From Candidatus Thorarchaeota archaeon (GTDB lineage: Archaea > Asgardarchaeota > Thorarchaeia > Thorarchaeales > Thorarchaeaceae): a stretch of 64,000 nt of DNA. Positions 10,800 to 20,000 of this stretch are shown here, in pieces. The stretch is taken from the NCBI GenBank assembly GCA_029855935.1, contig JAGSHN010000027.1, positions 96,001 to 160,000 of the forward strand. Direction: 5' to 3'. Position numbers and translations under genes: made by a program. A model generated the notes under the pieces. The model made no database searches. It saw only the letters and a program-made list of their open reading frames with translations, and was not told the origin of the DNA. The stretch's first letter is position 1. Every line of letters begins with the position of its first letter.

Positions 10800-13775
10800 T
10801 CACTTCACGGGACTCTTGTCCACCTTGGGAATCCAGATCAAGAACTCTGCACCCTGTGTGTGGTCACCAGGCACTCTGTCACGCACCGTTATCCTGCCGC
10901 CATACTTCTCGACGATCTGGCGAGAATGATGCAGGCCGAGCCCTCCGAAACGACGCGCCCGGTCGAACAGGCTCCTCTTGGCCGAGTCGGGAACGCCCGT
11001 GCCGTTGTCCGCGACACTGATGACATACCAGTCGCCATCCTCGAACACGCGCACCCAGACCTTCTTGACATCGTGCGGGTTGTGCTCCACTGCATTCATC
11101 AGGATGTTGGCAATCAGTAGCTCCAGGTACGAGTCCGCGAGGACGTCCGCCTTGTCGACCTCCCTCTCGACATAGAACTTCACGCTGGCACCACCCTGGG
11201 ACAGGCCCTTGATGCAGTTGTCGACCGCCTCAAGCAGGTCTCGTTTTTCCAGCGGGACACTGTGAAGCTGTTCCGTTGCACGGACCTCCTGAATCAGTCG
11301 GCTGACACGATTGACGGAGTCTGTCATTATCTGCAAGAAAGAGTCACGCGACGCATCATCAGTGGCATTGCGGAGCAGGTTTGCACTGCTGAGGATCACC
11401 TGCAGGTGATTGCGAATGTCATGCGAGATTATGTCAAGGTAGAGGTCTGCCTGATCACGCGCTGAGCGGACGCGCTTCTCTGCCTCCACGCGGTCGGTGA
11501 TGTCGATGAGGACGACCTGCAATGCACGGGCCCCCTCGTAGTCAACGGAACTAATGAAAGCCTCAACCCACCTGACTTTGCCGTCCGCTCCCACAAGCCT
11601 AAACTCAAGGTTACTCGGACCAGGTTCGCCCTGAAATCGCGACCGCAGTATCTCACTGACCGTTTCGCGGTCCTCGTGATAGATGAACTTTGACATCTCT
11701 TCAAGTGGAATAGAACGAAACTCATCAATCGTCACGCCGAGTAGTTCGAGCAGAGGGCGGTTCGCATACAGCAGACCCTCGGTGGACAGAACAGCCAGCC
11801 CCTGAAGACTGTTCTCTGCAAGCGACCTGTATTTCATCTCAGACCTGCGTATCGCCTGATCGCGAGCTCGCCTCTCTGTGATGTCCTGTGCGGTCCCGAG
11901 GACACCTATGATATTGCCCTCAACGTCATGCAGGGGTACCTTGTTGGTCTCAATCCACACCTCCCGTCCGTCTGCTTGGTGTTGTCTCTCAACAAGGCCA
12001 TACACACCCGCCCCGGACTCGATAACACGACGGTCTGTCGCTATGTATGACTCCGCCTCCTCAGGGAGCCAGGCAAGGTCGTGGTCAGTCTTGCCAACAA
12101 TCTCCGACGGATCTTTCACGCCTGCGACTCTTGCGAAGTTTGTGTTGCATCCCAAGTAGACGGAGTTCCGGTCCTTCCAGTAGACGTACAGTGGTATTGT
12201 CTCGAGAATGAGCTGCAACTTCTCTCGTGATTCAACTAGTTCATCCTGTGCCTCCTTCTTCTCCGTGATGTCTACGACGACCACCTGAAGAGCCTCTCTA
12301 CCTCCAAAGTCAATGTAGTTGGAGAATGCCTCCACCCATCGGACCGACCCATCCGGACGAATGAACCTGTACTGATAAGGAACGGGGAAAGGCTTGCCTG
12401 CCCTTCGCCGCTGGGCGATCTCGAGCAGGTACGGCTGGTCATCGGGATGTACCATAGACCATCCCTCCTCGCGGCTCATCGCGAGAATCTCTTCTCTGGA
12501 ACGTCCGACAATATCGCAGAACGCGGGGTTCACATAGACGTAGTGCTGATTCTGAATGATGGAGATTCCCTGTAGTGAGTGTTCGGCCAGTGCCCGGTAC
12601 TTCATCTCCGACTCCTGCAGAGCCGCCTCCATACGCTTCTTTTCCGTGATGTCATCGAACAGGCCCAGTACCTCGACCACGTTGCCGTCTTCGTCGAGCA
12701 CGGGATGCGCCTTCAGCTGACCGAACCCCCTACGACCAAACCTTGTAACATATTCGTGCTCTGTCACGACGGTCTGCTTAGACTCAACACATTTCCTCAG
12801 CGAGTCTGCTATTCCTGATTGAATCGAGTACTCGGATGTCAGGAAATTTATCTCAGCAACGTCCTCGGGCGTTCGAGCACCCAAGATCTCAAGGCCCTTC
12901 TTGTTGATGCTTATGATGTTGCCATCAGGTGTGACCACAACGATGCCAACGGGCATCTCATCAAAGAAGGTGCGGTAGCGTGCCTCCGTCGTCTGCAGCT
13001 CTCGGTGTATTCGTTTCAGGTCACTGATATCCATCACCACAGCAATTACGCCAACGAATTCTTCCTCCTGATCTGTGATGACTCGTGGCATCATTGCAGA
13101 ATGAACCCGCCTCCCGTCTGCCGTCCTGAACATGATCTCAAGCGTGACCTCTGTGCCCTCCGATGGCGGTTCGGCCATGAGCGTCTTGACCTGACCGAGC
13201 TCAGAGGGGTCTACTATCTCTAGCAAGGACTTGCCAAGCAGTTCGTCGGGGGAGTAGCCGAGCATCTCGAACAGACGGGGGTTTCCATACTTGACGCGCC
13301 AGTCAGCATCCAAGAACAACACGGCCTCATGCATGGTCTCAAGAATCGTCCTGAAACGGCGCTCGCTCCGAATCCTCTTCTCCTGCTCCAGTCGCATGCG
13401 AGTGATGTCTGTAATCACTGCGAACGAGCCGACAAATCTGTCGCCATCGAACATCGGCGTGGCGGAGACCACGGTATTGACCTTGTCACCAGTCCAGTGT
13501 ACCCAGTCGAGCGTGTACTGAGACGAGACACCCTCCTCCCTAAGATGCGAGAAACGGCGCACAACCTGAGCATTCTCCTCGTCGAGAAAGTCGAAGACAG
13601 GGCGCCCGATGATCTCACCCAGCGGATAGCCTATCAGCTCAACGAAACTATGGTTGGCGTAGGTAATCACATTCTCAGGGTCAACAACTATGAGGGCATC
13701 ATTCATCGTGTCTACAATCTCTTTGTAGGGGACAGCTGGTCTTTCATTGGCTATAGAATCGGAGTTTCGGGTCAT
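10800..13775 (-). CDS. Cytoplasmic sensor histidine kinase with six PAS domains
   Basis: Six PAS/PAC units ending DITE/DISD-type motifs; H-box SHDIRNHL, N-box NILMNAVEH, DNGTG and GGLGL. No TM or receiver domain. ATG 13775 preferred. Confidence 0.92.
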   Translation of the reverse strand: MTRNSDSIANERPAVPYKEIVDTMNDALIVVDPENVITYANHSFVELIGYPLGEIIGRPVFDFLDEENAQVVRRFSHLREEGVSSQYTLDWVHWTGDKVNTVVSATPMFDGDRFVGSFAVITDITRMRLEQEKRIRSERRFRTILETMHEAVLFLDADWRVKYGNPRLFEMLGYSPDELLGKSLLEIVDPSELGQVKTLMAEPPSEGTEVTLEIMFRTADGRRVHSAMMPRVITDQEEEFVGVIAVVMDISDLKRIHRELQTTEARYRTFFDEMPVGIVVVTPDGNIISINKKGLEILGARTPEDVAEINFLTSEYSIQSGIADSLRKCVESKQTVVTEHEYVTRFGRRGFGQLKAHPVLDEDGNVVEVLGLFDDITEKKRMEAALQESEMKYRALAEHSLQGISIIQNQHYVYVNPAFCDIVGRSREEILAMSREEGWSMVHPDDQPYLLEIAQRRRAGKPFPVPYQYRFIRPDGSVRWVEAFSNYIDFGGREALQVVVVDITEKKEAQDELVESREKLQLILETIPLYVYWKDRNSVYLGCNTNFARVAGVKDPSEIVGKTDHDLAWLPEEAESYIATDRRVIESGAGVYGLVERQHQADGREVWIETNKVPLHDVEGNIIGVLGTAQDITERRARDQAIRRSEMKYRSLAENSLQGLAVLSTEGLLYANRPLLELLGVTIDEFRSIPLEEMSKFIYHEDRETVSEILRSRFQGEPGPSNLEFRLVGADGKVRWVEAFISSVDYEGARALQVVLIDITDRVEAEKRVRSARDQADLYLDIISHDIRNHLQVILSSANLLRNATDDASRDSFLQIMTDSVNRVSRLIQEVRATEQLHSVPLEKRDLLEAVDNCIKGLSQGGASVKFYVEREVDKADVLADSYLELLIANILMNAVEHNPHDVKKVWVRVFEDGDWYVISVADNGTGVPDSAKRSLFDRARRFGGLGLHHSRQIVEKYGGRITVRDRVPGDHTQGAEFLIWIPKVDKSPVK

Positions 13776-13960
13776 AAGAGAGTGGTCCTCCGAGGGAGGG
13801 AGTAACGCAGACAGCTCTGATATAACTGGTAATAATGCCTTTGGTCGCACTTTGATACGGCCACCAGTCTGTTGTGGACTGTGCCGATGACATTGTACGG
13901 CCAATCGTCAGAGAAATAAGTGTCAGTGCGCAGTGTATAGCCCCGGGAGGTAGCCGCGTT

Positions 13961-14878
13961 TTGGAACGAGAAAGGGGCGAAGATGTCCTTCCTGTGATTA
14001 GGGTGTCGGCCCGGATCTACAGGCCCATCGATGAGGTATGGAACCTGTTTCTCGACCCCGTCAAGATGGTACAGTGGCTTGGTAACGAGATCACGGCGGA
14101 GATAAAGAGCGATGGTGTCATCTCCTTCGATGGGCCGAATGCACCCGTCACTCCAGAGATGACGGGACAGTGGAAGATAACAACACTGAGACCTCACAGT
14201 GGCATTCTCTTCACGTGGAGCATACTGGGCACGGACACTCTTGTACTGATGAGATTCCGACGCATACCTCCCGGTACACTCCTTGAGGTCAGGCACGGTG
14301 CCATACCGCCCGCCGCCAAGATCTTGCACCTACCTGAACACTGGACTCTGATGCTGGCCAATTTCAGGTCCATAGTTGAGCTCGGCGAGCCGGCCTTGCG
14401 TTTTGACTATTCGAAGTATCACCCATTGAGAGTCACACGCTACGACCCGACCGAGGTCAGGCTCAGCGTGGTGATCAATGCGCCACCGTCATTGCCCTTT
14501 GACGTCTGGACCAATCCCGAGAAACTGAGGCACTTTCTCGGGGTAGAACGTCCGGTGGTCGACAGAAGATATGGTGGTATCTATACCTGGTGGGCAGAGG
14601 GCAAGGGTCCGGTTGTCTTTACAAAGCTCGAGCAGGACAAGGAACTAGAGTTCACGTGGGTCTACGGCGATGAGCCCGAGACCAAGGTGAACATCAGGTT
14701 TGAACCCGTGGAAGACAAGACGCTCGTCATGCTCCATCATTTTGGATTCAGGCATCCTGAGGATGTTGTCGGATATGACATTGGCTGGGCAGCAATTCTG
14801 GCCGAGCTCAAGCTCACCTGCGAGCTTGGGGAGTCGGGCATAGAGAGGGAGAGCATCTGGGAAGAAGTCCGTTTCTAG
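13961..14878 (+). CDS. Tandem SRPBCC/AHSA1-like domain protein
   Basis: Two repeats (EVWNLFLDP..WLG and DVWTNPEKL), LEFTW..ETKV..F, GWAAILAELK; TTG start after GGAGGT. Confidence 0.8.
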   Translation: MERERGEDVLPVIRVSARIYRPIDEVWNLFLDPVKMVQWLGNEITAEIKSDGVISFDGPNAPVTPEMTGQWKITTLRPHSGILFTWSILGTDTLVLMRFRRIPPGTLLEVRHGAIPPAAKILHLPEHWTLMLANFRSIVELGEPALRFDYSKYHPLRVTRYDPTEVRLSVVINAPPSLPFDVWTNPEKLRHFLGVERPVVDRRYGGIYTWWAEGKGPVVFTKLEQDKELEFTWVYGDEPETKVNIRFEPVEDKTLVMLHHFGFRHPEDVVGYDIGWAAILAELKLTCELGESGIERESIWEEVRF

Positions 14879-14935: not shown

Positions 14936-15682
14936 TCACAGACCGGGGAGAAATAGCAGCTGCATATCAGGGAATAGCAGGAGCCACATGGAGAACGATG
15001 TGACAAGCGGGATGAGAAAGTTGTCCAGCCATCTAGTGCTCACAAGTTCCGTCACTGTGACTAGGCCGGCGATTGTCAACAGATGCGGAAAGACACTGAC
15101 AATCTGGATGTCGGCAAACAGATAGAGCGAAACAAGGAGGGACAACAGCGAGAAGACGAAGACCCCGACAGAGCCCTCAACGGACTTCCCACGAATCCGC
15201 CTTGACAGAACTCGCGCGCCAAACAATCGTCCAAACACCTCACCTGCTGCATCAGCCCAGGCCACAGCAAGAATGGCAGACACGAAGATTGCGGGCTGTG
15301 CGAGAAAGAGGAGAAATGACACGGCAAAGGAGATCATACCCATCAGCCCCGATACGAAGGTATTGGCACGCGACTCGTTCTCCCTGCTCCCTGCAGCGAG
15401 GAGGTCCGAGATAAGGCTGTGCTTGTGGCCCCACGCATAGATGAGAATGGCAAGAAAGACGCCCGCCGCAAATGTCGGACCACTGAGGTTTGTGTAGACC
15501 ACAACAGTCAATGCGATGGTCGTGCCCATCACTATGTGAACGAGTTTTCTTGCCTTCCAGTGGGCCACACCGTGTGATGCCATCACATACGCTGCGGCCA
15601 AGACCAGACCAGCAAGGAACCCCGTCATCAGGGCCATTGCTATATCAAGCGGTGTGAGCGTCCCGAAGAATAGCTCGACCAT
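14936..15682 (-). CDS. Polyprenol/phytol/dolichol kinase-like (CTP-dependent) membrane protein
   Basis: ARKLVHI, WADAAGEVFG, GKSVEGS and ELVS..LDNFLIP motifs. Confidence 0.82.
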   Translation of the reverse strand: MVELFFGTLTPLDIAMALMTGFLAGLVLAAAYVMASHGVAHWKARKLVHIVMGTTIALTVVVYTNLSGPTFAAGVFLAILIYAWGHKHSLISDLLAAGSRENESRANTFVSGLMGMISFAVSFLLFLAQPAIFVSAILAVAWADAAGEVFGRLFGARVLSRRIRGKSVEGSVGVFVFSLLSLLVSLYLFADIQIVSVFPHLLTIAGLVTVTELVSTRWLDNFLIPLVTSFSMWLLLFPDMQLLFLPGL

Positions 15683-15843
15683 TGTGGGCCGAGCATTGGT
15701 CGTGACGCCCCCTTTTGACGTTTGTCGTGTCCAACCAACGGCAACCTTAAGTGTTCCTTCTCGTGCATGCTCACACTACGCGGGACTGACATAGCAGACA
15801 GTCGGGACCGCAACGTGTGGTCCACCGTCAGGAGTACTGTGTG

Positions 15844-16428
15844 ATGAGAGACCAGAACGATGGCAGCAAGATTCTCAAGGCCGTCCTCATTGGCGATGGT
15901 GCTGTCGGAAAGACCAGTATCAGAAGAAACTATCTTGGCGAGGACTTCATCGAGGGCCACCTGGCCACGATTGGAGTGGACCTGGCCACAAAGCGAGTCT
16001 TGTTTCGGGACGAAATCATCAAGTTCGTCATATGGGATCTGGCGGGACAGCCGACATTCGAGAAAGTCAGAGGACATTACTACCACGGTGCGAACGGTAT
16101 ACTCCTTGTCTATTCTGTGGTCGACCGCACATCCTTCGACAATGCTTCAAAGTGGCTTGTCGAGGCATATCGGAATATGGGCCGACTCCCACCGACAATC
16201 ATCATCGGCAACAAGATTGACCTGCGCGACAAGGTGCCTCCGGAACAGCAGGTCACTCCGGAGGAGGGAAAGCAGTTTGCCGAGTACTTCACACGAAAGC
16301 TTGAGGTCCCGGCAGTCTTCATCGAGACCTCGGCCAAGACTGGCGAGAACATCCAAGAGGCCTTTCACGCCATCCTCTCAATGATGTACGATGCTGTTGA
16401 TGACAAGAGCGACCACTATGTCGGATAG
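15844..16428 (+). CDS. Rab-like small GTPase
   Basis: G1 GDGAVGKTS, TIGVD, WDLAGQ, YYHGA, NKID and ETSAK; no C-terminal Cys. Confidence 0.93.
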   Translation: MRDQNDGSKILKAVLIGDGAVGKTSIRRNYLGEDFIEGHLATIGVDLATKRVLFRDEIIKFVIWDLAGQPTFEKVRGHYYHGANGILLVYSVVDRTSFDNASKWLVEAYRNMGRLPPTIIIGNKIDLRDKVPPEQQVTPEEGKQFAEYFTRKLEVPAVFIETSAKTGENIQEAFHAILSMMYDAVDDKSDHYVG

Positions 16429-16482
16429 TCTCGGGTGTACCTGCCGCCCATCACCCCGAGAGACAGGGAACTCAAGAACACC

Positions 16483-16496
16483 AATCATTTAAGTGG
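16483..16496 (+). promoter_or_regulatory. Putative BRE/TATA promoter AATCATTTAAGTGG for the GTPase2-V4R operon
   Basis: TTTAAG box about 70 nt before ATG 16562; near-identical AATCATTCAAGTGG at 3812-3825 before another operon. Confidence 0.45.
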
Positions 16497-16561
16497 GCCG
16501 GTGAGTTCATTCCCTCAGCGTCCAGGGCGCAACCGCGAGTTCAAGCGGGGTGACACCCTCG

Positions 16562-17095
16562 ATGTCTAAGGGACCAAGTAAGCGAAAGACCTCTCAAGTC
16601 AACAAGATTGTACTTGTTGGTGCGGGAGGCGTCGGCAAGACCAGTATTGCCAAACGACTCGTGACCGGGGAATACCTGGAGACAGGGATGACCGTGGGAC
16701 TGAACGTCGAGTCGTGGATGGTGAAGGACACCGATGAAGACGTTAGCTTCAAAGTCGTTGCCTTCGACCTGGGTGGTCAGAAACAGTTCAGGTTCTTTCA
16801 ACCGGAACTGGTCAGCGGAGCGGACATAGCATTGATCGTCTTCGACCTCAGCCGGTATGAGTCATTTGCAGAGCTGGACGAATGGTTGGATATGGTCAAA
16901 GAAATGCCAGCAGAGTCGAAGCTACTGATAGCCAACAAATGCGACCTCCGACCGGTCGTTCAAGAAGATGAGGCCAATGCATTGGCCAAACAGCTGGGAG
17001 TCCGCTTGATCTACTTGAGTGCGAAGACCGGCCAAGGCTTCGACAAGCTGGAGAGCATGATCTGGAAACAACTCAAGGACAAGACTAAAACGTGA
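16562..17095 (+). CDS. Ras-superfamily (Rab/Roc-like) small GTPase
   Basis: GAGGVGKTS, MTVG, FDLGGQKQF, NKCD and LSAK. Confidence 0.92.
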   Translation: MSKGPSKRKTSQVNKIVLVGAGGVGKTSIAKRLVTGEYLETGMTVGLNVESWMVKDTDEDVSFKVVAFDLGGQKQFRFFQPELVSGADIALIVFDLSRYESFAELDEWLDMVKEMPAESKLLIANKCDLRPVVQEDEANALAKQLGVRLIYLSAKTGQGFDKLESMIWKQLKDKTKT

Positions 17096-17101
17096 GAGGC
17101 G

Positions 17102-17572
17102 GTGTTGCTGGAAACAAGGTCGTGGGCAGCAGTGGTGGAGATAAAGGTCGAATGTCCTGTTTGTTCACAGGTCATTGTTACAGACATCAGAGAGGCGCAG
17201 GTCAAGTACTCTTTGAGGAATCCGGTGCCCATCGTTCTCACTCACGGTGACCCCGAGCATGCCATAACCGCATTTGTGGATAAGGAGTTCCGAGTGCGTG
17301 CTGTGAGCGGTGTCAACATCGTGCAGCGTATTCAGGAGGCGGAGTCCAGAAGGCGTCCACTGGAAAAGAGATTCGTCCCGTTTCCGAAGGAGAATGTTGA
17401 CCTTAAGGGGATAGATTCTTTCCAGTTGAAGATTATGGCTCTGGTCGATGGCAGGAGAAGTGTCAAAGAACTTGCAGAGATTCTGAACGCGCCCGAGATG
17501 CGAGTTAAGATAGTCTGCGAGCAGCTCGTCAGAATGGGCAAGCTCGACTCGGTAAAAGTGGTGGTGGAGTGA
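17102..17572 (+). CDS. Hypothetical protein: CPxC/His putative Zn-binding domain plus winged helix
   Basis: ECPVC..THGDPEH..FVDKEFRVR, then DGRRSVKELAEILN..LVRMG. Real start may be about 17132. Confidence 0.7.
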   Translation: MLLETRSWAAVVEIKVECPVCSQVIVTDIREAQVKYSLRNPVPIVLTHGDPEHAITAFVDKEFRVRAVSGVNIVQRIQEAESRRRPLEKRFVPFPKENVDLKGIDSFQLKIMALVDGRRSVKELAEILNAPEMRVKIVCEQLVRMGKLDSVKVVVE

Positions 17573-17573
17573 C

Positions 17574-18188
17574 ATGGTCAAGAACTGGCTACTCGTACAG
17601 GCATCGAAGATCAAGAAACTGACTGGTGAGAAGGCACTAACACTAACCGTTACAAAGCTGAATGAGCTCCTCGTGGAGCAGTTGACTGAAGCACTGGGGC
17701 CAGATCAGGCATTTGAGCGAATATTCGAGGGAGGACTCCAGTTGGGACATGAGTTCATGATGGAGCTCTCAGCTCATCTTGATCCCGCATTTGAGCGCAT
17801 GCCAGCATACGGAGAGGCCGCGTGGATTCTCTTCGCCGGCAAGGCTCCGACATGGCAGCAGTTCCAGAAGACTGAGATAGGAGGCAAAGAGGCGTACATC
17901 TACCAATGGGCGGATGATGATTGCCCCTTCTGCAGAAATATCCGGTTTCCCCACAAGTTCTGCGCATTCCCGGCCGGTGCGTATCAGGGAGCTGCCCAGA
18001 CGTGGTCAGCACTGACACGGAACGGAGAGCACCATATGCTTGTTCGTGAAACAAAATGCAAGGCCATTGGTGATAATCGGTGCGAGTTTATGCTCGTATC
18101 CGTTCACAGAGATGTCTCGCTGGAGCAACTGCGGGGCGAGATGCCCGAGCTGTTCGAAGACTTTCACTACGGCTTTGTAGACTACTAG
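17574..18188 (+). CDS. V4R (Bet3/TRAPP-fold related) domain protein
   Basis: DCPFC..FCAFPAGAYQG..VRETKCKAIGDNRCEF is the V4R Cys pattern; starts 1 nt after the upstream stop. Confidence 0.82.
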   Translation: MVKNWLLVQASKIKKLTGEKALTLTVTKLNELLVEQLTEALGPDQAFERIFEGGLQLGHEFMMELSAHLDPAFERMPAYGEAAWILFAGKAPTWQQFQKTEIGGKEAYIYQWADDDCPFCRNIRFPHKFCAFPAGAYQGAAQTWSALTRNGEHHMLVRETKCKAIGDNRCEFMLVSVHRDVSLEQLRGEMPELFEDFHYGFVDY

Positions 18189-19378
18189 ACACGCAGCGAC
18201 TTTGCTGCAGCAAGAATAGCCCTCCGAAACGCTCCCTTCCGTGCCTCGCGATACGTCACAGTTCCAAGGATGGCTCGGCCCATCAACTCCCTGATTGGCC
18301 TGTCAGCTATCATCATCTTGACGATCAGCTCCATTCGACGCAGCGACGCGTAGACAAAGTCTGCCAGAGGAAGACCGTAGTTGATCATGTCATCGCCGAA
18401 GTCGGCCATCCATCGATCAGTGTAGTCCGATACAAGGTCCTTTGTGGCCTTGCCCTCCATAGCATCGCGAATCGCCTCCACTGCGTGAATCCCCGTCTTG
18501 ATACCAAACGAGATTCCCTCGCCGGTGACGGGCGACACAAAACCGCCGGCATCCCCAGCAAGGAGGACACGGCCCACACCTATTGGTTCGAATGGTCTCC
18601 TGAAGGGTATCGAGGCAGGAATCCCGGTCTTGGGGTCAAAGTCCTCAGGCAACATCTTGCGCTTCTTGAGCATCGCAACAAAGTCTGCAAAGACCTCAAA
18701 CTGTGTCTTGTCGGGGAGCCGTCGATTGCCGAAGCCAATCCCGACATTCATGAAGCCGCGCTTTGGAAAGACCCAGCCGTAGCCACGTGGAACAACGCCA
18801 AAAAAGATGTGCAGGCCACGGACCTCGCCAGTGAGCTCGTCAATCAGTGCGTCATCCATCGGGACCTCCGCGCAGACCGTCCTCGCCATATGGTCATAGG
18901 GCTGAGTGAAGCCCAGCTTCTTCCGATACGACTTCAGGCCAGTGCCGTCCGCGAGAATGACGTAGCGAGCCTCTATCGAGTCACCCGATCTCGTTCTGAC
19001 CTCGACACCATCGCCAGAAGGTGTGACGTCTGTGACCATCGTCTCCTCGCGCACGTCAGCACCAGCATCAGCCGCATCCAGCAACATCAGATGGTCCCAT
19101 TCCTTTCTCACAACAAAGTGCATATCGTGCTCAGGTACGTACTCAGCGGACCTGAGTTTCGGAGAATAGACCACCAGGCGCTTTGGGATACAGTTGATCC
19201 CTTTCTGTGCCTTGGGCCCAATCATAGGTAGGACCTTGAACGAGAGTGCACCGCCACACGACTTGTGACGCGGAAACTTCGCCTTGTCAAGGACCGTTAC
19301 GTCCAGACCGTATCTAGCAGCATAGAGAGCAGCAGCGCTTCCTGCTGGGCCTGCACCAACTACAACTATGTCCTTCAT
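18185..19378 (-). CDS. Geranylgeranyl reductase family FAD oxidoreductase
   Basis: GAGPAGS, FPRHKSCGG, GYGWVFPK and LAGDAGGFVSPVTGEGI. Confidence 0.9.
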   Translation of the reverse strand: MKDIVVVGAGPAGSAAALYAARYGLDVTVLDKAKFPRHKSCGGALSFKVLPMIGPKAQKGINCIPKRLVVYSPKLRSAEYVPEHDMHFVVRKEWDHLMLLDAADAGADVREETMVTDVTPSGDGVEVRTRSGDSIEARYVILADGTGLKSYRKKLGFTQPYDHMARTVCAEVPMDDALIDELTGEVRGLHIFFGVVPRGYGWVFPKRGFMNVGIGFGNRRLPDKTQFEVFADFVAMLKKRKMLPEDFDPKTGIPASIPFRRPFEPIGVGRVLLAGDAGGFVSPVTGEGISFGIKTGIHAVEAIRDAMEGKATKDLVSDYTDRWMADFGDDMINYGLPLADFVYASLRRMELIVKMMIADRPIRELMGRAILGTVTYREARKGAFRRAILAAAKSLRV

Positions 19379-19554
19379 CGTGACTCAAAGGGTGAGTCGG
19401 AAATCTGCCTAAAAAAACTAGGCTGCCCAATCAGCCTGCAACTCAGAGGCCGCATCATGCAACAGGTCGACAGAGAGCCCCCTGAAAGATATGCCGACTG
19501 CGAAGCAACAAAGAAATATTATGTTCGAGCGGAGGGGAGCAGGTAGTGGTCTCT

Positions 19555-20000
19555 TGGCGCAGGATTTGCGCGACTGGAGATGGGTTGGCGACTGGGCTGG
19601 AAGAAGGGCATCGTTGACGCCCGACCGCATAGCCATACGAGACAATACCACCAGCACGGAATACACGTTCGGAGAGATGAACAGGCGTGCCAATCGTGTG
19701 GCTTACGTGTTGTTGGAGCACGGTGTCACAAAGGGGAGTAGGGTTGCCACTTACTCAAAGAACAGAATAGAGATAGTAGATCTCTTCCTAGCCTGCGGGA
19801 AGATAGACGCAGTCCTAGTGCCACTCAACATAAGACTCGCACCGCCAGAGATAGAGTTCCTTGTCAAGAAGACCAATCCCAAGGTGATTGCCTACGACCA
19901 GCAGATTAAGACCAGGTTTCACAGCCTTGGGAAGGGCGTGACGGGCCGGACAGTGACGAGTCTGGGCGAGCCCGCTCGGGACGACGGTCGCGATGCGTAG
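19555..20000 (+). pseudogene. N-terminal fragment of an AMP-binding acyl-CoA ligase
   Basis: WVGDW..RRASLTPDRIA..YTFGEMNRRANRVA..GVTKGSRVA..VPLNIRLA; stops after about 150 aa, before the YTSGTTG motif, with no room for the rest. Confidence 0.75.

Follow-up and report, generated by a model that had tools for sequence, protein, structure and literature searches.

A conserved gene cassette of Thorarchaeota joins a divergent small GTPase with a zinc-module winged-helix protein and a Bet3/V4R-fold protein: a candidate GTPase switch

Asgard archaea possess dozens of Ras-, Rab- and Arf-like GTPases as well as many roadblock, longin and TRAPPC3-like proteins, and to our knowledge it is not known which of these regulators serves which GTPase. 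Here, we describe a gene cassette on a stretch of 64,000 nucleotides (nt), termed the window, from a Candidatus Thorarchaeota archaeon (assembly GCA_029855935.1, contig JAGSHN010000027.1, positions 96,001 to 160,000 of the forward strand), the genome of which comprises 2.97 Mb, is 97% complete and probably stems from a hydrothermal-vent metagenome. Three genes, encoding a divergent Ras/Rab-like switch GTPase (GTPase 2), a protein composed of a zinc (Zn) module and a winged helix (ZW) and a protein of the Bet3/TRAPPC3-V4R fold (the V4R protein), are a conserved, tightly coupled unit. We give an even chance to the reading, drawn from sequence comparison, that they form one operon for a small-GTPase switch with two dedicated partners, because four lines of evidence agree with it: conservation of the operon, linkage of the module to GTPase genes, the fusions and a ligand-binding fold. 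A neighbouring gene for a further GTPase, GTPase 1, is a separate Rab-like gene of another conserved block and lies outside the system. In the following, G, L, P and A denote genomes (G000 is the window genome), fetched loci, proteins and alignments, and proteins G1 and G2 are GTPase 1 and GTPase 2.

Results

GTPase 2, ZW and the V4R protein are encoded in a conserved trio

Four open reading frames (ORFs) on the plus strand encode GTPase 1 (15844-16428), GTPase 2 (16550-17095), ZW (17102-17572) and the V4R protein (17574-18188), separated by 121, 6 and 1 nt. The initial annotation, which had described four co-directional genes with the last three in tight succession, is correct on this point. 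The stop codon of the GTPase 2 gene is followed after 6 nt by a GTG codon, and the TGA stop of the ZW gene is followed after 1 nt by the ATG of the V4R gene. Since the N-termini of ZW orthologues lie about 10 residues further in than the annotated start, the GTG at 17132 is the probable true start, in which case the gap to the GTPase 2 gene amounts to 36 rather than 6 nt. Each of the two GTPase genes is preceded by a TTAAGTG heptamer (15747-15753 and 16489-16495), which was not used because chance would yield roughly one shared 7-mer in stretches of that length, and a scan for sigma-70 promoters and terminators was set aside as not applicable to archaea.

The loci around V4R orthologues were surveyed by tblastn and blastp. 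The trio, in which GTPase 2 comes first, recurs in eight other genomes (G003, G010, G012, G014, G016, G019, G102 and, twice, G299), representing seven genera of the family and a second family. Order and strand are identical in G019, G003, G010, G014, G016 and G012, and the junctions in the relatives are overlaps of 1-4 nt or short gaps. G102, the representative of the different family, carries the genes for GTPase 2, ZW, the V4R protein and a reductase all in the same direction, at 35-43% identity. In G299, two diverged copies of the trio flank a single reductase gene; this locus (L100, G299:C125:12000-27000) shows 37-45% identity between the copies and has a GTPase 1 orthologue about 5 kb further on. 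The flanks vary between the trio genomes, with a major facilitator superfamily (MFS) transporter gene on either side. The order of the three genes is beyond chance because it is kept in eight genomes while the flanks differ, and the conservation of the neighbourhood among Asgard genomes, which the initial annotation had named as a check, is thus borne out for the trio. Searches of the full-text literature yielded no description of this operon or module.

A paralogous three-gene cassette was observed in other Thorarchaeota genomes, including the same genus (L049, L050, L055, L058 and L082). It consists of genes for a GTPase of the GTPase 2 clade, a Zn-module protein of about 170-190 amino acids (aa) and a conserved third protein, about 160 aa long, that bears a CLICP...ACPVGG pattern (alignment A6). 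We rejected the latter as a V4R protein, as Pfam finds nothing and the hhalign probability is 1.5%. Elsewhere, the third gene encodes a protein of about 148 aa that looks longin-like. The window genome lacks the paralogous cassette.

The Zn module of ZW recurrently follows GTPase genes across Asgard lineages

ZW combines a beta-rich Zn module with the pattern CPxC...HGxPEH...D...R (residues about 10-72, 17129-17317, plus strand) with a winged helix-turn-helix (wHTH; residues about 89-156, 17366-17569, plus strand). It has 18 orthologues at 48-84% identity, in which C18, C21, H48, H53, D60 and R66 are invariant. An AlphaFold2 (AF2) model from 18 sequences has a predicted local distance difference test score (pLDDT) of 83 and a predicted template modelling score (pTM) of 0.46 and comprises two domains: an N-terminal, beta-rich domain with strands 11-17, 24-30, 42-46, 55-59 and 65-70 and a helix (73-82), and a C-terminal domain consisting of a strand and a winged helix (residues 89-155). 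The CPxC..H..H plus wHTH make-up read from the sequence by the initial annotation therefore stands, with the CPxC and HGxPEH motifs invariant and the winged helix in place in the model.

No Pfam family passes its cut-off on ZW, and the Zn module has no Pfam match. A structure search with residues 1-85 returned only unnamed Asgard clusters, a look-up of residues 1-90 in the ESM Atlas gave no usable match and the whole model found nothing in Foldseek at E<=0.001. The nearest structures are Npr2/NPRL2 winged helices, which bind proteins. We considered an NPRL2-like make-up of ZW, longin plus wHTH, but dropped it because the Npr2/NPRL2/GATOR1 rows in Foldseek span the winged helix only; the likeness to NPRL2/NPRL3 (Npr2/Npr3) of GATOR1/SEACIT is confined to this domain.

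The Zn module itself, as captured by the ZW profile, is present in 224 of the 301 phylum genomes sampled, frequently more than once per genome. A search of 1.84 billion proteins with the profile gave 144 clusters at 50% identity. Among 204 instances both cysteines of CPxC are present in 100%, the histidines of HGxPxH in 93% and 92%, the aspartate in 99% and the arginine in 94%. The module exists as a stand-alone protein of 70-110 aa, joined to a winged helix or joined to about 200 further residues. It is fused to V4R in P0087 and P0130 (V4R at 1e-17 and 1e-13) and to DegV, which has a fatty-acid-binding fold, in P0110 and P0132, and P0096 is a fusion of a Ras GTPase with a ZW-like winged helix. 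By eye, a longin-looking domain joined to the module was noted at L061 (3024-3623) and L078 (3087-3689) and at about five similar loci of family f9. These proteins of about 200 aa have a longin-looking stretch of 135 residues at the N-terminus and the Zn module at the C-terminus, and the model used recognized no adjoining GTPase gene at their loci.

Around the best-scoring matches to the ZW profile, 48 loci were fetched from many genomes. In 17 of the 48, the gene directly upstream encodes a Ras-like GTPase and has the same strand; this fraction overstates the independent support for the link because the loci are top matches to a GTPase-linked profile and many stem from related genomes. The order is always GTPase then module, the genes overlapping by up to 4 nt or standing up to 148 nt apart; in two further loci a GTPase gene is nearby, not directly upstream. 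The background frequency of GTPase genes is about 0.8% (24 GTPase ORFs in the 2.97-Mb window genome). Linked GTPases were seen in at least four families and are spread over at least three clades; those from Thorarchaeota cluster with GTPase 2. GTPase genes are followed by stand-alone modules (86-98 aa) as well, at L071:2397-3905 and L075:2432-3982, which suggests that a GTPase partner needs to consist of no more than the module; the third protein encoded at these two loci (about 148-175 aa) looks longin- or roadblock-like in sequence and has no Pfam match.

As its Zn module sits directly downstream of GTPase genes and occurs fused to V4R, ZW looks like a GTPase partner. The role of adaptor or effector that the initial annotation had proposed for it would be in line with this. 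A complex prediction for GTPase 2 (A5) with ZW (A1) scored 0.01 against a mark of 0.32 and counts neither for nor against binding.

GTPase 2 is a divergent switch GTPase

GTPase 2 matches Pfam Ras at 4.7e-27 and 95 bits (cut-off 21.6). The motifs GxGGVGKT, T48, DLGGQ, NKxD and SAK are present and kept among the orthologues (alignments A3 and A5). Both GTPases have complete G motifs including the catalytic glutamine and belong to the Ras superfamily. Among solved structures, Sec4 and Rab1 (about 1e-16) and also Rab11 are the closest relatives of GTPase 2, and compared with the 8e-33 reached by GTPase 1 this agrees with the greater divergence ascribed to it at the outset. The regions corresponding to RabF motifs are likewise divergent (VGLNV, VAFDLGGQ). 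GTPase 2 retains a canonical DxxGQ and has no intrinsic switch-I arginine. Neither GTPase carries a C-terminal cysteine prenylation motif of the eukaryotic Rab type, again as annotated: GTPase 2 ends in ...DKTKT and GTPase 1 in ...SDHYVG, both without a terminal cysteine, and the orthologues share no C-terminal cysteine motif. In a tree of 43 GTPases, GTPase 2 is the only GTPase of the window genome in a long-branch clade (support 91/100), which also holds the cassette orthologues and other Thorarchaeota GTPases linked to the Zn module, while GTPase 1 groups with an ordinary Rab-like paralogue.

The third protein has a Bet3/V4R fold and a predicted zinc site

The V4R protein (17574-18188, plus strand) scores just below the cut-off of Pfam V4R (PF02830; 29.2 bits in hmmscan against 31); in the genome search it reached 29.4 bits, or 32.1 bits with neighbouring in-frame stretches added. 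Its AF2 model, built from eight orthologues (pLDDT 74), shows four helices over a four-stranded sheet across the whole domain. In Foldseek it gave 43 matches at E<=0.001, all of them to Bet3/TPC6/TRAPPC3 or to the V4R sensor domains of MopR, PoxR and DmpR. The modelled fold is clearly Bet3/V4R, and the comparison with Bet3-type structures upholds the V4R/Bet3 relationship that the initial annotation had assigned to the fourth protein.

C130, C162 and C170 are invariant, and C120 and C117 are found in 7 and 4 of the 8 orthologues, respectively. Over 123 columns the protein aligns with a TRAPPC3 homologue of the window genome (hhalign E 5e-6), and all five cysteines of its CxxC...C...Cx7C pattern are in register. 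The alignment with a generic V4R paralogue reached E 0.0065. The TRAPPC3 homologue itself matches Thor-TRAPPC3 (7YH3) at 2e-24 and eukaryotic TRAPPC3 at 7e-8. The residues for a zinc site predicted to tether the sheet to the last helix are present in the V4R protein. In Thor-TRAPPC3 the zinc is held by four cysteines (PMC10933270), in DmpR by Cys151/Glu172/Cys177/Cys185 (PMC7264223), and palmitate and phenols are known ligands of the Bet3/V4R fold (PMC10933270; PMC7264223).

Thor-TRAPPC3 (PDB 7YH2 and 7YH3; PMC10933270) and the eukaryotic Bet3 family (TRAPPC3/C5/C6) are among the closest known systems. Unlike Thor-TRAPPC3, the V4R protein escapes Pfam TRAPP (PF04051) and its profile finds nothing among PDB sequences even at E 10; at its N-terminus it has an additional helix of some 40 residues, its partner bears a Zn module in place of a roadblock domain, and its gene shares an operon with a GTPase gene, an arrangement that according to Tran et al. 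is not the rule in MK-D1 (PMC10933270). Elsewhere in the window genome there are two Pfam-TRAPP genes and another three V4R genes. The only two genes matching PF04051 are situated on contig C21, and each of these true TRAPPC3 homologues lies behind a gene for a protein with a roadblock-looking domain and a double winged helix.

Some further observations concern these relatives. At L026:4313-9233 on contig C21, two tandem gene pairs are followed by a V4R gene, and in each pair a protein of about 310-320 aa (P0016, P0015) is encoded directly upstream of the Pfam-TRAPP protein. P0016 and P0015 have a roadblock-looking N-terminus, read from a weak Pfam hit (E 0.017) and by eye, and two winged helices, of which that of P0015 resembles the winged helix of ZW (hhalign 6.9e-6). 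On contig C29 (L027:5624-6535, minus strand) a protein of 303 aa joins a longin- or roadblock-looking N-terminus to V4R (Pfam V4R 2e-12), and on contig C28 a V4R gene stands beside three roadblock genes (around 124788-127298). Altogether, the genome has about 20 roadblock matches, 24 GTPase ORFs and 6 V4R/TRAPP genes.

A prenyl-reductase gene accompanies the cassette

A gene for a flavin adenine dinucleotide (FAD) enzyme of the geranylgeranyl-reductase family (18185-19378, minus strand), overlooked in the initial annotation, is a conserved neighbour of the cassette. It is convergent with the V4R gene and overlaps its stop codon by 4 nt. The enzyme passes the subfamily model TIGR02032 (205.4 bits, cut-off 158.8), and no equivalog model (DGGGPL reductase, MenJ or ChlP) exceeds its cut-off. 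The window genome encodes some ten or more such paralogues in all. A reductase gene adjoins the cassette or its V4R gene at L009, L013, L014, L016, L017, L018, L019 and L100 and is co-directional with the cassette in the other family (L099), so that nearly all cassette genomes of both families show the link, whichever way the reductase gene points. In G010, a gene for an EMG1 methyltransferase takes its place.

GTPase 1 is a bystander

GTPase 1 (15844-16428, plus strand) is a Rab-like protein of the Thor-Rab type (Pfam Ras 1e-43, 149 bits, cut-off 21.6), and the crystallized 'Thorarchaeota Rab' 7EZB is its closest solved structure (8e-33 in a PDB search). All of the Rab-like motifs that had been pointed out in it, IGVD, KFVIW, YYHGA and LVYSV, were found, the second as part of KFVIWDLAGQ. 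Orthologues with 70-86% identity are present in all 26 family genomes searched, many of them cassette-free, and sit away from the cassette in all other genomes. In G003, a member of the same genus, some 10 kb separate the cassette from the orthologue, which is on the opposite strand, in a block that encodes an AHSA1 protein, a 248-aa membrane protein, GTPase 1 and an acyl-CoA ligase. The left-hand part of this block is also found in G016 and G017, on contigs other than that of the cassette. In the window, the cassette and the reductase gene lie between GTPase 1 and a short AMP-binding ORF. GTPase 1 and the cassette are adjacent in the window genome only, and the arrangement looks like the result of a local rearrangement. 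Two clustered Rab-like GTPases acting as a unit, as proposed initially, can thus be discarded; of the GTPase-regulator module envisaged there, GTPase 2, ZW and the V4R protein remain as a conserved unit and GTPase 1 drops out.

The AMP-binding ORF (19491-20000, plus strand, acyl-CoA ligase type, 169 aa, profile positions 3-107 of 384) abuts an MFS gene of the opposite strand and is probably a truncated remnant of the rearrangement that joined the cassette to GTPase 1. On the other side, a double AHSA1/SRPBCC protein that binds hydrophobic ligands (13874-14878, plus strand) and a 248-aa multi-pass membrane protein without family match (14936-15682, minus strand) are encoded. Because the genes for these two proteins and for GTPase 1 form a conserved block in G003, G016 and G017, GTPase 1 may have a lipid-related context of its own.

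Discussion

In the reading that we put forward as a candidate, ZW would dock on GTPase 2 via its Zn module. The most likely single mechanism would be that of a GTPase-activating protein (GAP) of the arginine-finger type, in which the invariant Arg66 and Asp60 of ZW take part; we arrive at this guess because the arginine and the aspartate of the module are invariant and GTPase 2 has no intrinsic switch-I arginine. The winged helix may add guanine nucleotide exchange factor (GEF) or scaffold activity, as in the actinobacterial conservon. The Bet3/V4R protein would bind a hydrophobic ligand, probably an isoprenoid tied to the neighbouring reductase, and gate ZW, and the nucleotide state of GTPase 2 would report or control the status of membrane lipids, i.e., of their prenyl chains.

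Several points weigh against this reading. Full-length ZW was found in only 11 of the 301 sampled phylum genomes (9 of 77 in the family and 2 of 28 in family f5), and the cassette is therefore accessory and patchy. G017 keeps only ZW and the V4R protein, with a helicase-like gene in the place of GTPase 2. Besides the inflated proportion of 17 among the 48 module loci, 29 of these loci have no adjacent GTPase gene recognizable by the model used. What the ligand would be and which part the reductase would play are proposed solely from gene neighbourhood. Compared with 11 roadblock domains, the Zn module reached an hhalign probability of 0.3%, and the notion of a zinc-stabilized mini-roadblock, which the order beta-beta-alpha-beta-beta-beta-alpha would fit, was given up on that score. 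Membership in DUF742 was likewise rejected, because the match is below the cut-off (16.4 bits, E 0.008, and 17.6 bits in the genome search, against 27) and non-specific, with sub-cut-off matches (E up to 1) in 9 of 14 control genomes.

The main rival is a split, MsvR-like transcription factor, in which the V4R protein would sense a small molecule or the redox state, ZW would bind DNA and control the reductase gene, and the GTPase would provide an accessory input. Such a division of labour has some appeal, as V4R is best known as the sensor of the transcription activators DmpR, PoxR and MopR (PMC7264223), a PDB profile search finds the archaeal HTH regulator PH0140 at 6e-4, and the conserved reductase gene, divergent or convergent, would be a natural target. 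We nevertheless consider it unlikely. The NCBIfam MsvR match reaches only 14.9 bits against a cut-off of 220, the closest structures to ZW are the protein-binding winged helices mentioned above, and the same type of winged helix is present in the roadblock-wHTH proteins that the genome pairs with its TRAPPC3 homologues. A transcription factor also leaves unexplained why the module is positioned behind GTPase genes, including stand-alone modules that are free of any HTH. Note also that the V4R protein differs from the XylR/DmpR/PoxR/MopR sensors and from archaeal MsvR in standing alone, with no fusion to an AAA+/HTH output, and that fusions within its family are to the Zn module.

In TRAPP complexes, the Rab-binding and catalytic surface is formed mainly by longin subunits of the Bet5/Trs23 type. 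This background bears on the possibility that the Bet3-fold protein and ZW are a minimal GEF for GTPase 2 in membrane remodelling or trafficking, a forerunner of the TRAPP-Rab1/Rab11 relation. In its boldest form, judged from sequence, the pair would represent an ancestor-type relation that catalyzes nucleotide exchange on GTPase 2 or its reversal, and the Asgard-wide Zn module would be a new class of small-GTPase regulator (GAP or GEF) whose place longin/roadblock subunits took, or which was lost, on the way to eukaryotes. Both forms have a slender chance in our view. The V4R protein's profile link to the TRAPPC3 homologue of the genome, itself a sequence match to eukaryotic TRAPPC3, the position of Sec4, Rab1 and Rab11 as closest solved relatives of GTPase 2 and the conserved operonic pairing are in line with it. 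However, PF04051 misses the V4R protein, the two true TRAPP genes lie elsewhere and are paired with roadblock-wHTH proteins, and GTPase 2 has no lipid anchor signal. Of the proto-TRAPP-like module suggested by the initial annotation, the Bet3 fold and the TRAPPC3 link have held up, whereas no longin subunit or roadblock domain was recognized in the cassette by Pfam, and the Zn module reached 0.3% against roadblock domains in hhalign. Furthermore, the rarity of the cassette and its association with a lipid reductase point to a role in metabolism or sensing more than to one in core trafficking. Improbable, finally, is a mere accessory set for the reductase, in which the Bet3/V4R protein carries a prenyl lipid to the enzyme while ZW and the GTPase help with its assembly or localization and do no signalling: the linkage in two families and two orientations, the fusion of the Zn module to lipid-binding DegV domains, the binding of palmitate by Bet3 and the ligand transport proposed by Tran et al. 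for Thor-TRAPPC3 (PMC10933270) speak for it, but the cassette of G010 has no adjoining reductase gene, most pairs of Zn module and GTPase elsewhere have none nearby, and a complete switch GTPase with conserved catalytic glutamine argues for regulated cycling.

For the GTPase switch, the nearest working analogy is the actinobacterial conservon, in which genes for a roadblock GAP and for a helix-turn-helix GEF of the DUF742 type accompany that of a GTPase (PMC9769811, PMC11343762), as exemplified by CvnA-D and by the mycobacterial MfpB GTPase, MfpC DUF742 GEF, MfpD roadblock GAP and MfpE kinase (PMC11343762, PMC9769811, PMC13343842). Both systems place a Ras-like GTPase beside small non-enzymatic regulators, one of them with a helix-turn-helix, and a sensor component. 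In the cassette, however, the sensor has the Bet3/V4R fold and the Zn module has no conservon counterpart. As the DUF742 match stays under the cut-off (16-18 bits versus 27) and the cassette contains neither a roadblock gene (the 20 roadblock matches are elsewhere in the genome) nor a conserved histidine kinase, it is not a conservon. A gene for a multi-PAS histidine kinase of 1034 aa (10800-13904, minus strand) does lie upstream of the four genes, but was dropped as a conservon-like sensor since it is not kept beside the cassette in the surveyed loci.

With MglA/MglB and other prokaryotic GTPase-roadblock pairs, the cassette shares the location of the GTPase gene next to a small dedicated regulator in the same order and with the same coupling. 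It differs in that the Zn module shows no sequence kinship with roadblock domains (hhalign 0.3%) and features a predicted metal site of the C2H2 type and an invariant arginine, and in that GTPase 2 has the canonical DxxGQ without an intrinsic switch-I arginine.

In MK-D1, which has 74 GTPases, GTPase genes are generally not operonic with roadblock, longin or TRAPPC3 genes, and the layout of the genome was of no help in matching regulators to GTPases (Tran et al. 2024, PMC10933270). The Thorarchaeota cassette offers a concrete, conserved pairing of one GTPase clade with one adaptor and one Bet3-fold protein. It also draws attention to a phylum-wide zinc module that follows GTPase genes, has hitherto been without a family name and is directly testable with recombinant proteins. 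If the module indeed acts as a GAP or GEF, it would be a new class of regulator for the Ras superfamily and would bear on how eukaryotic TRAPP-type and GATOR-type regulators were assembled. The link to the prenyl reductase suggests a first physiological read-out for an Asgard GTPase, namely the saturation of membrane lipids.

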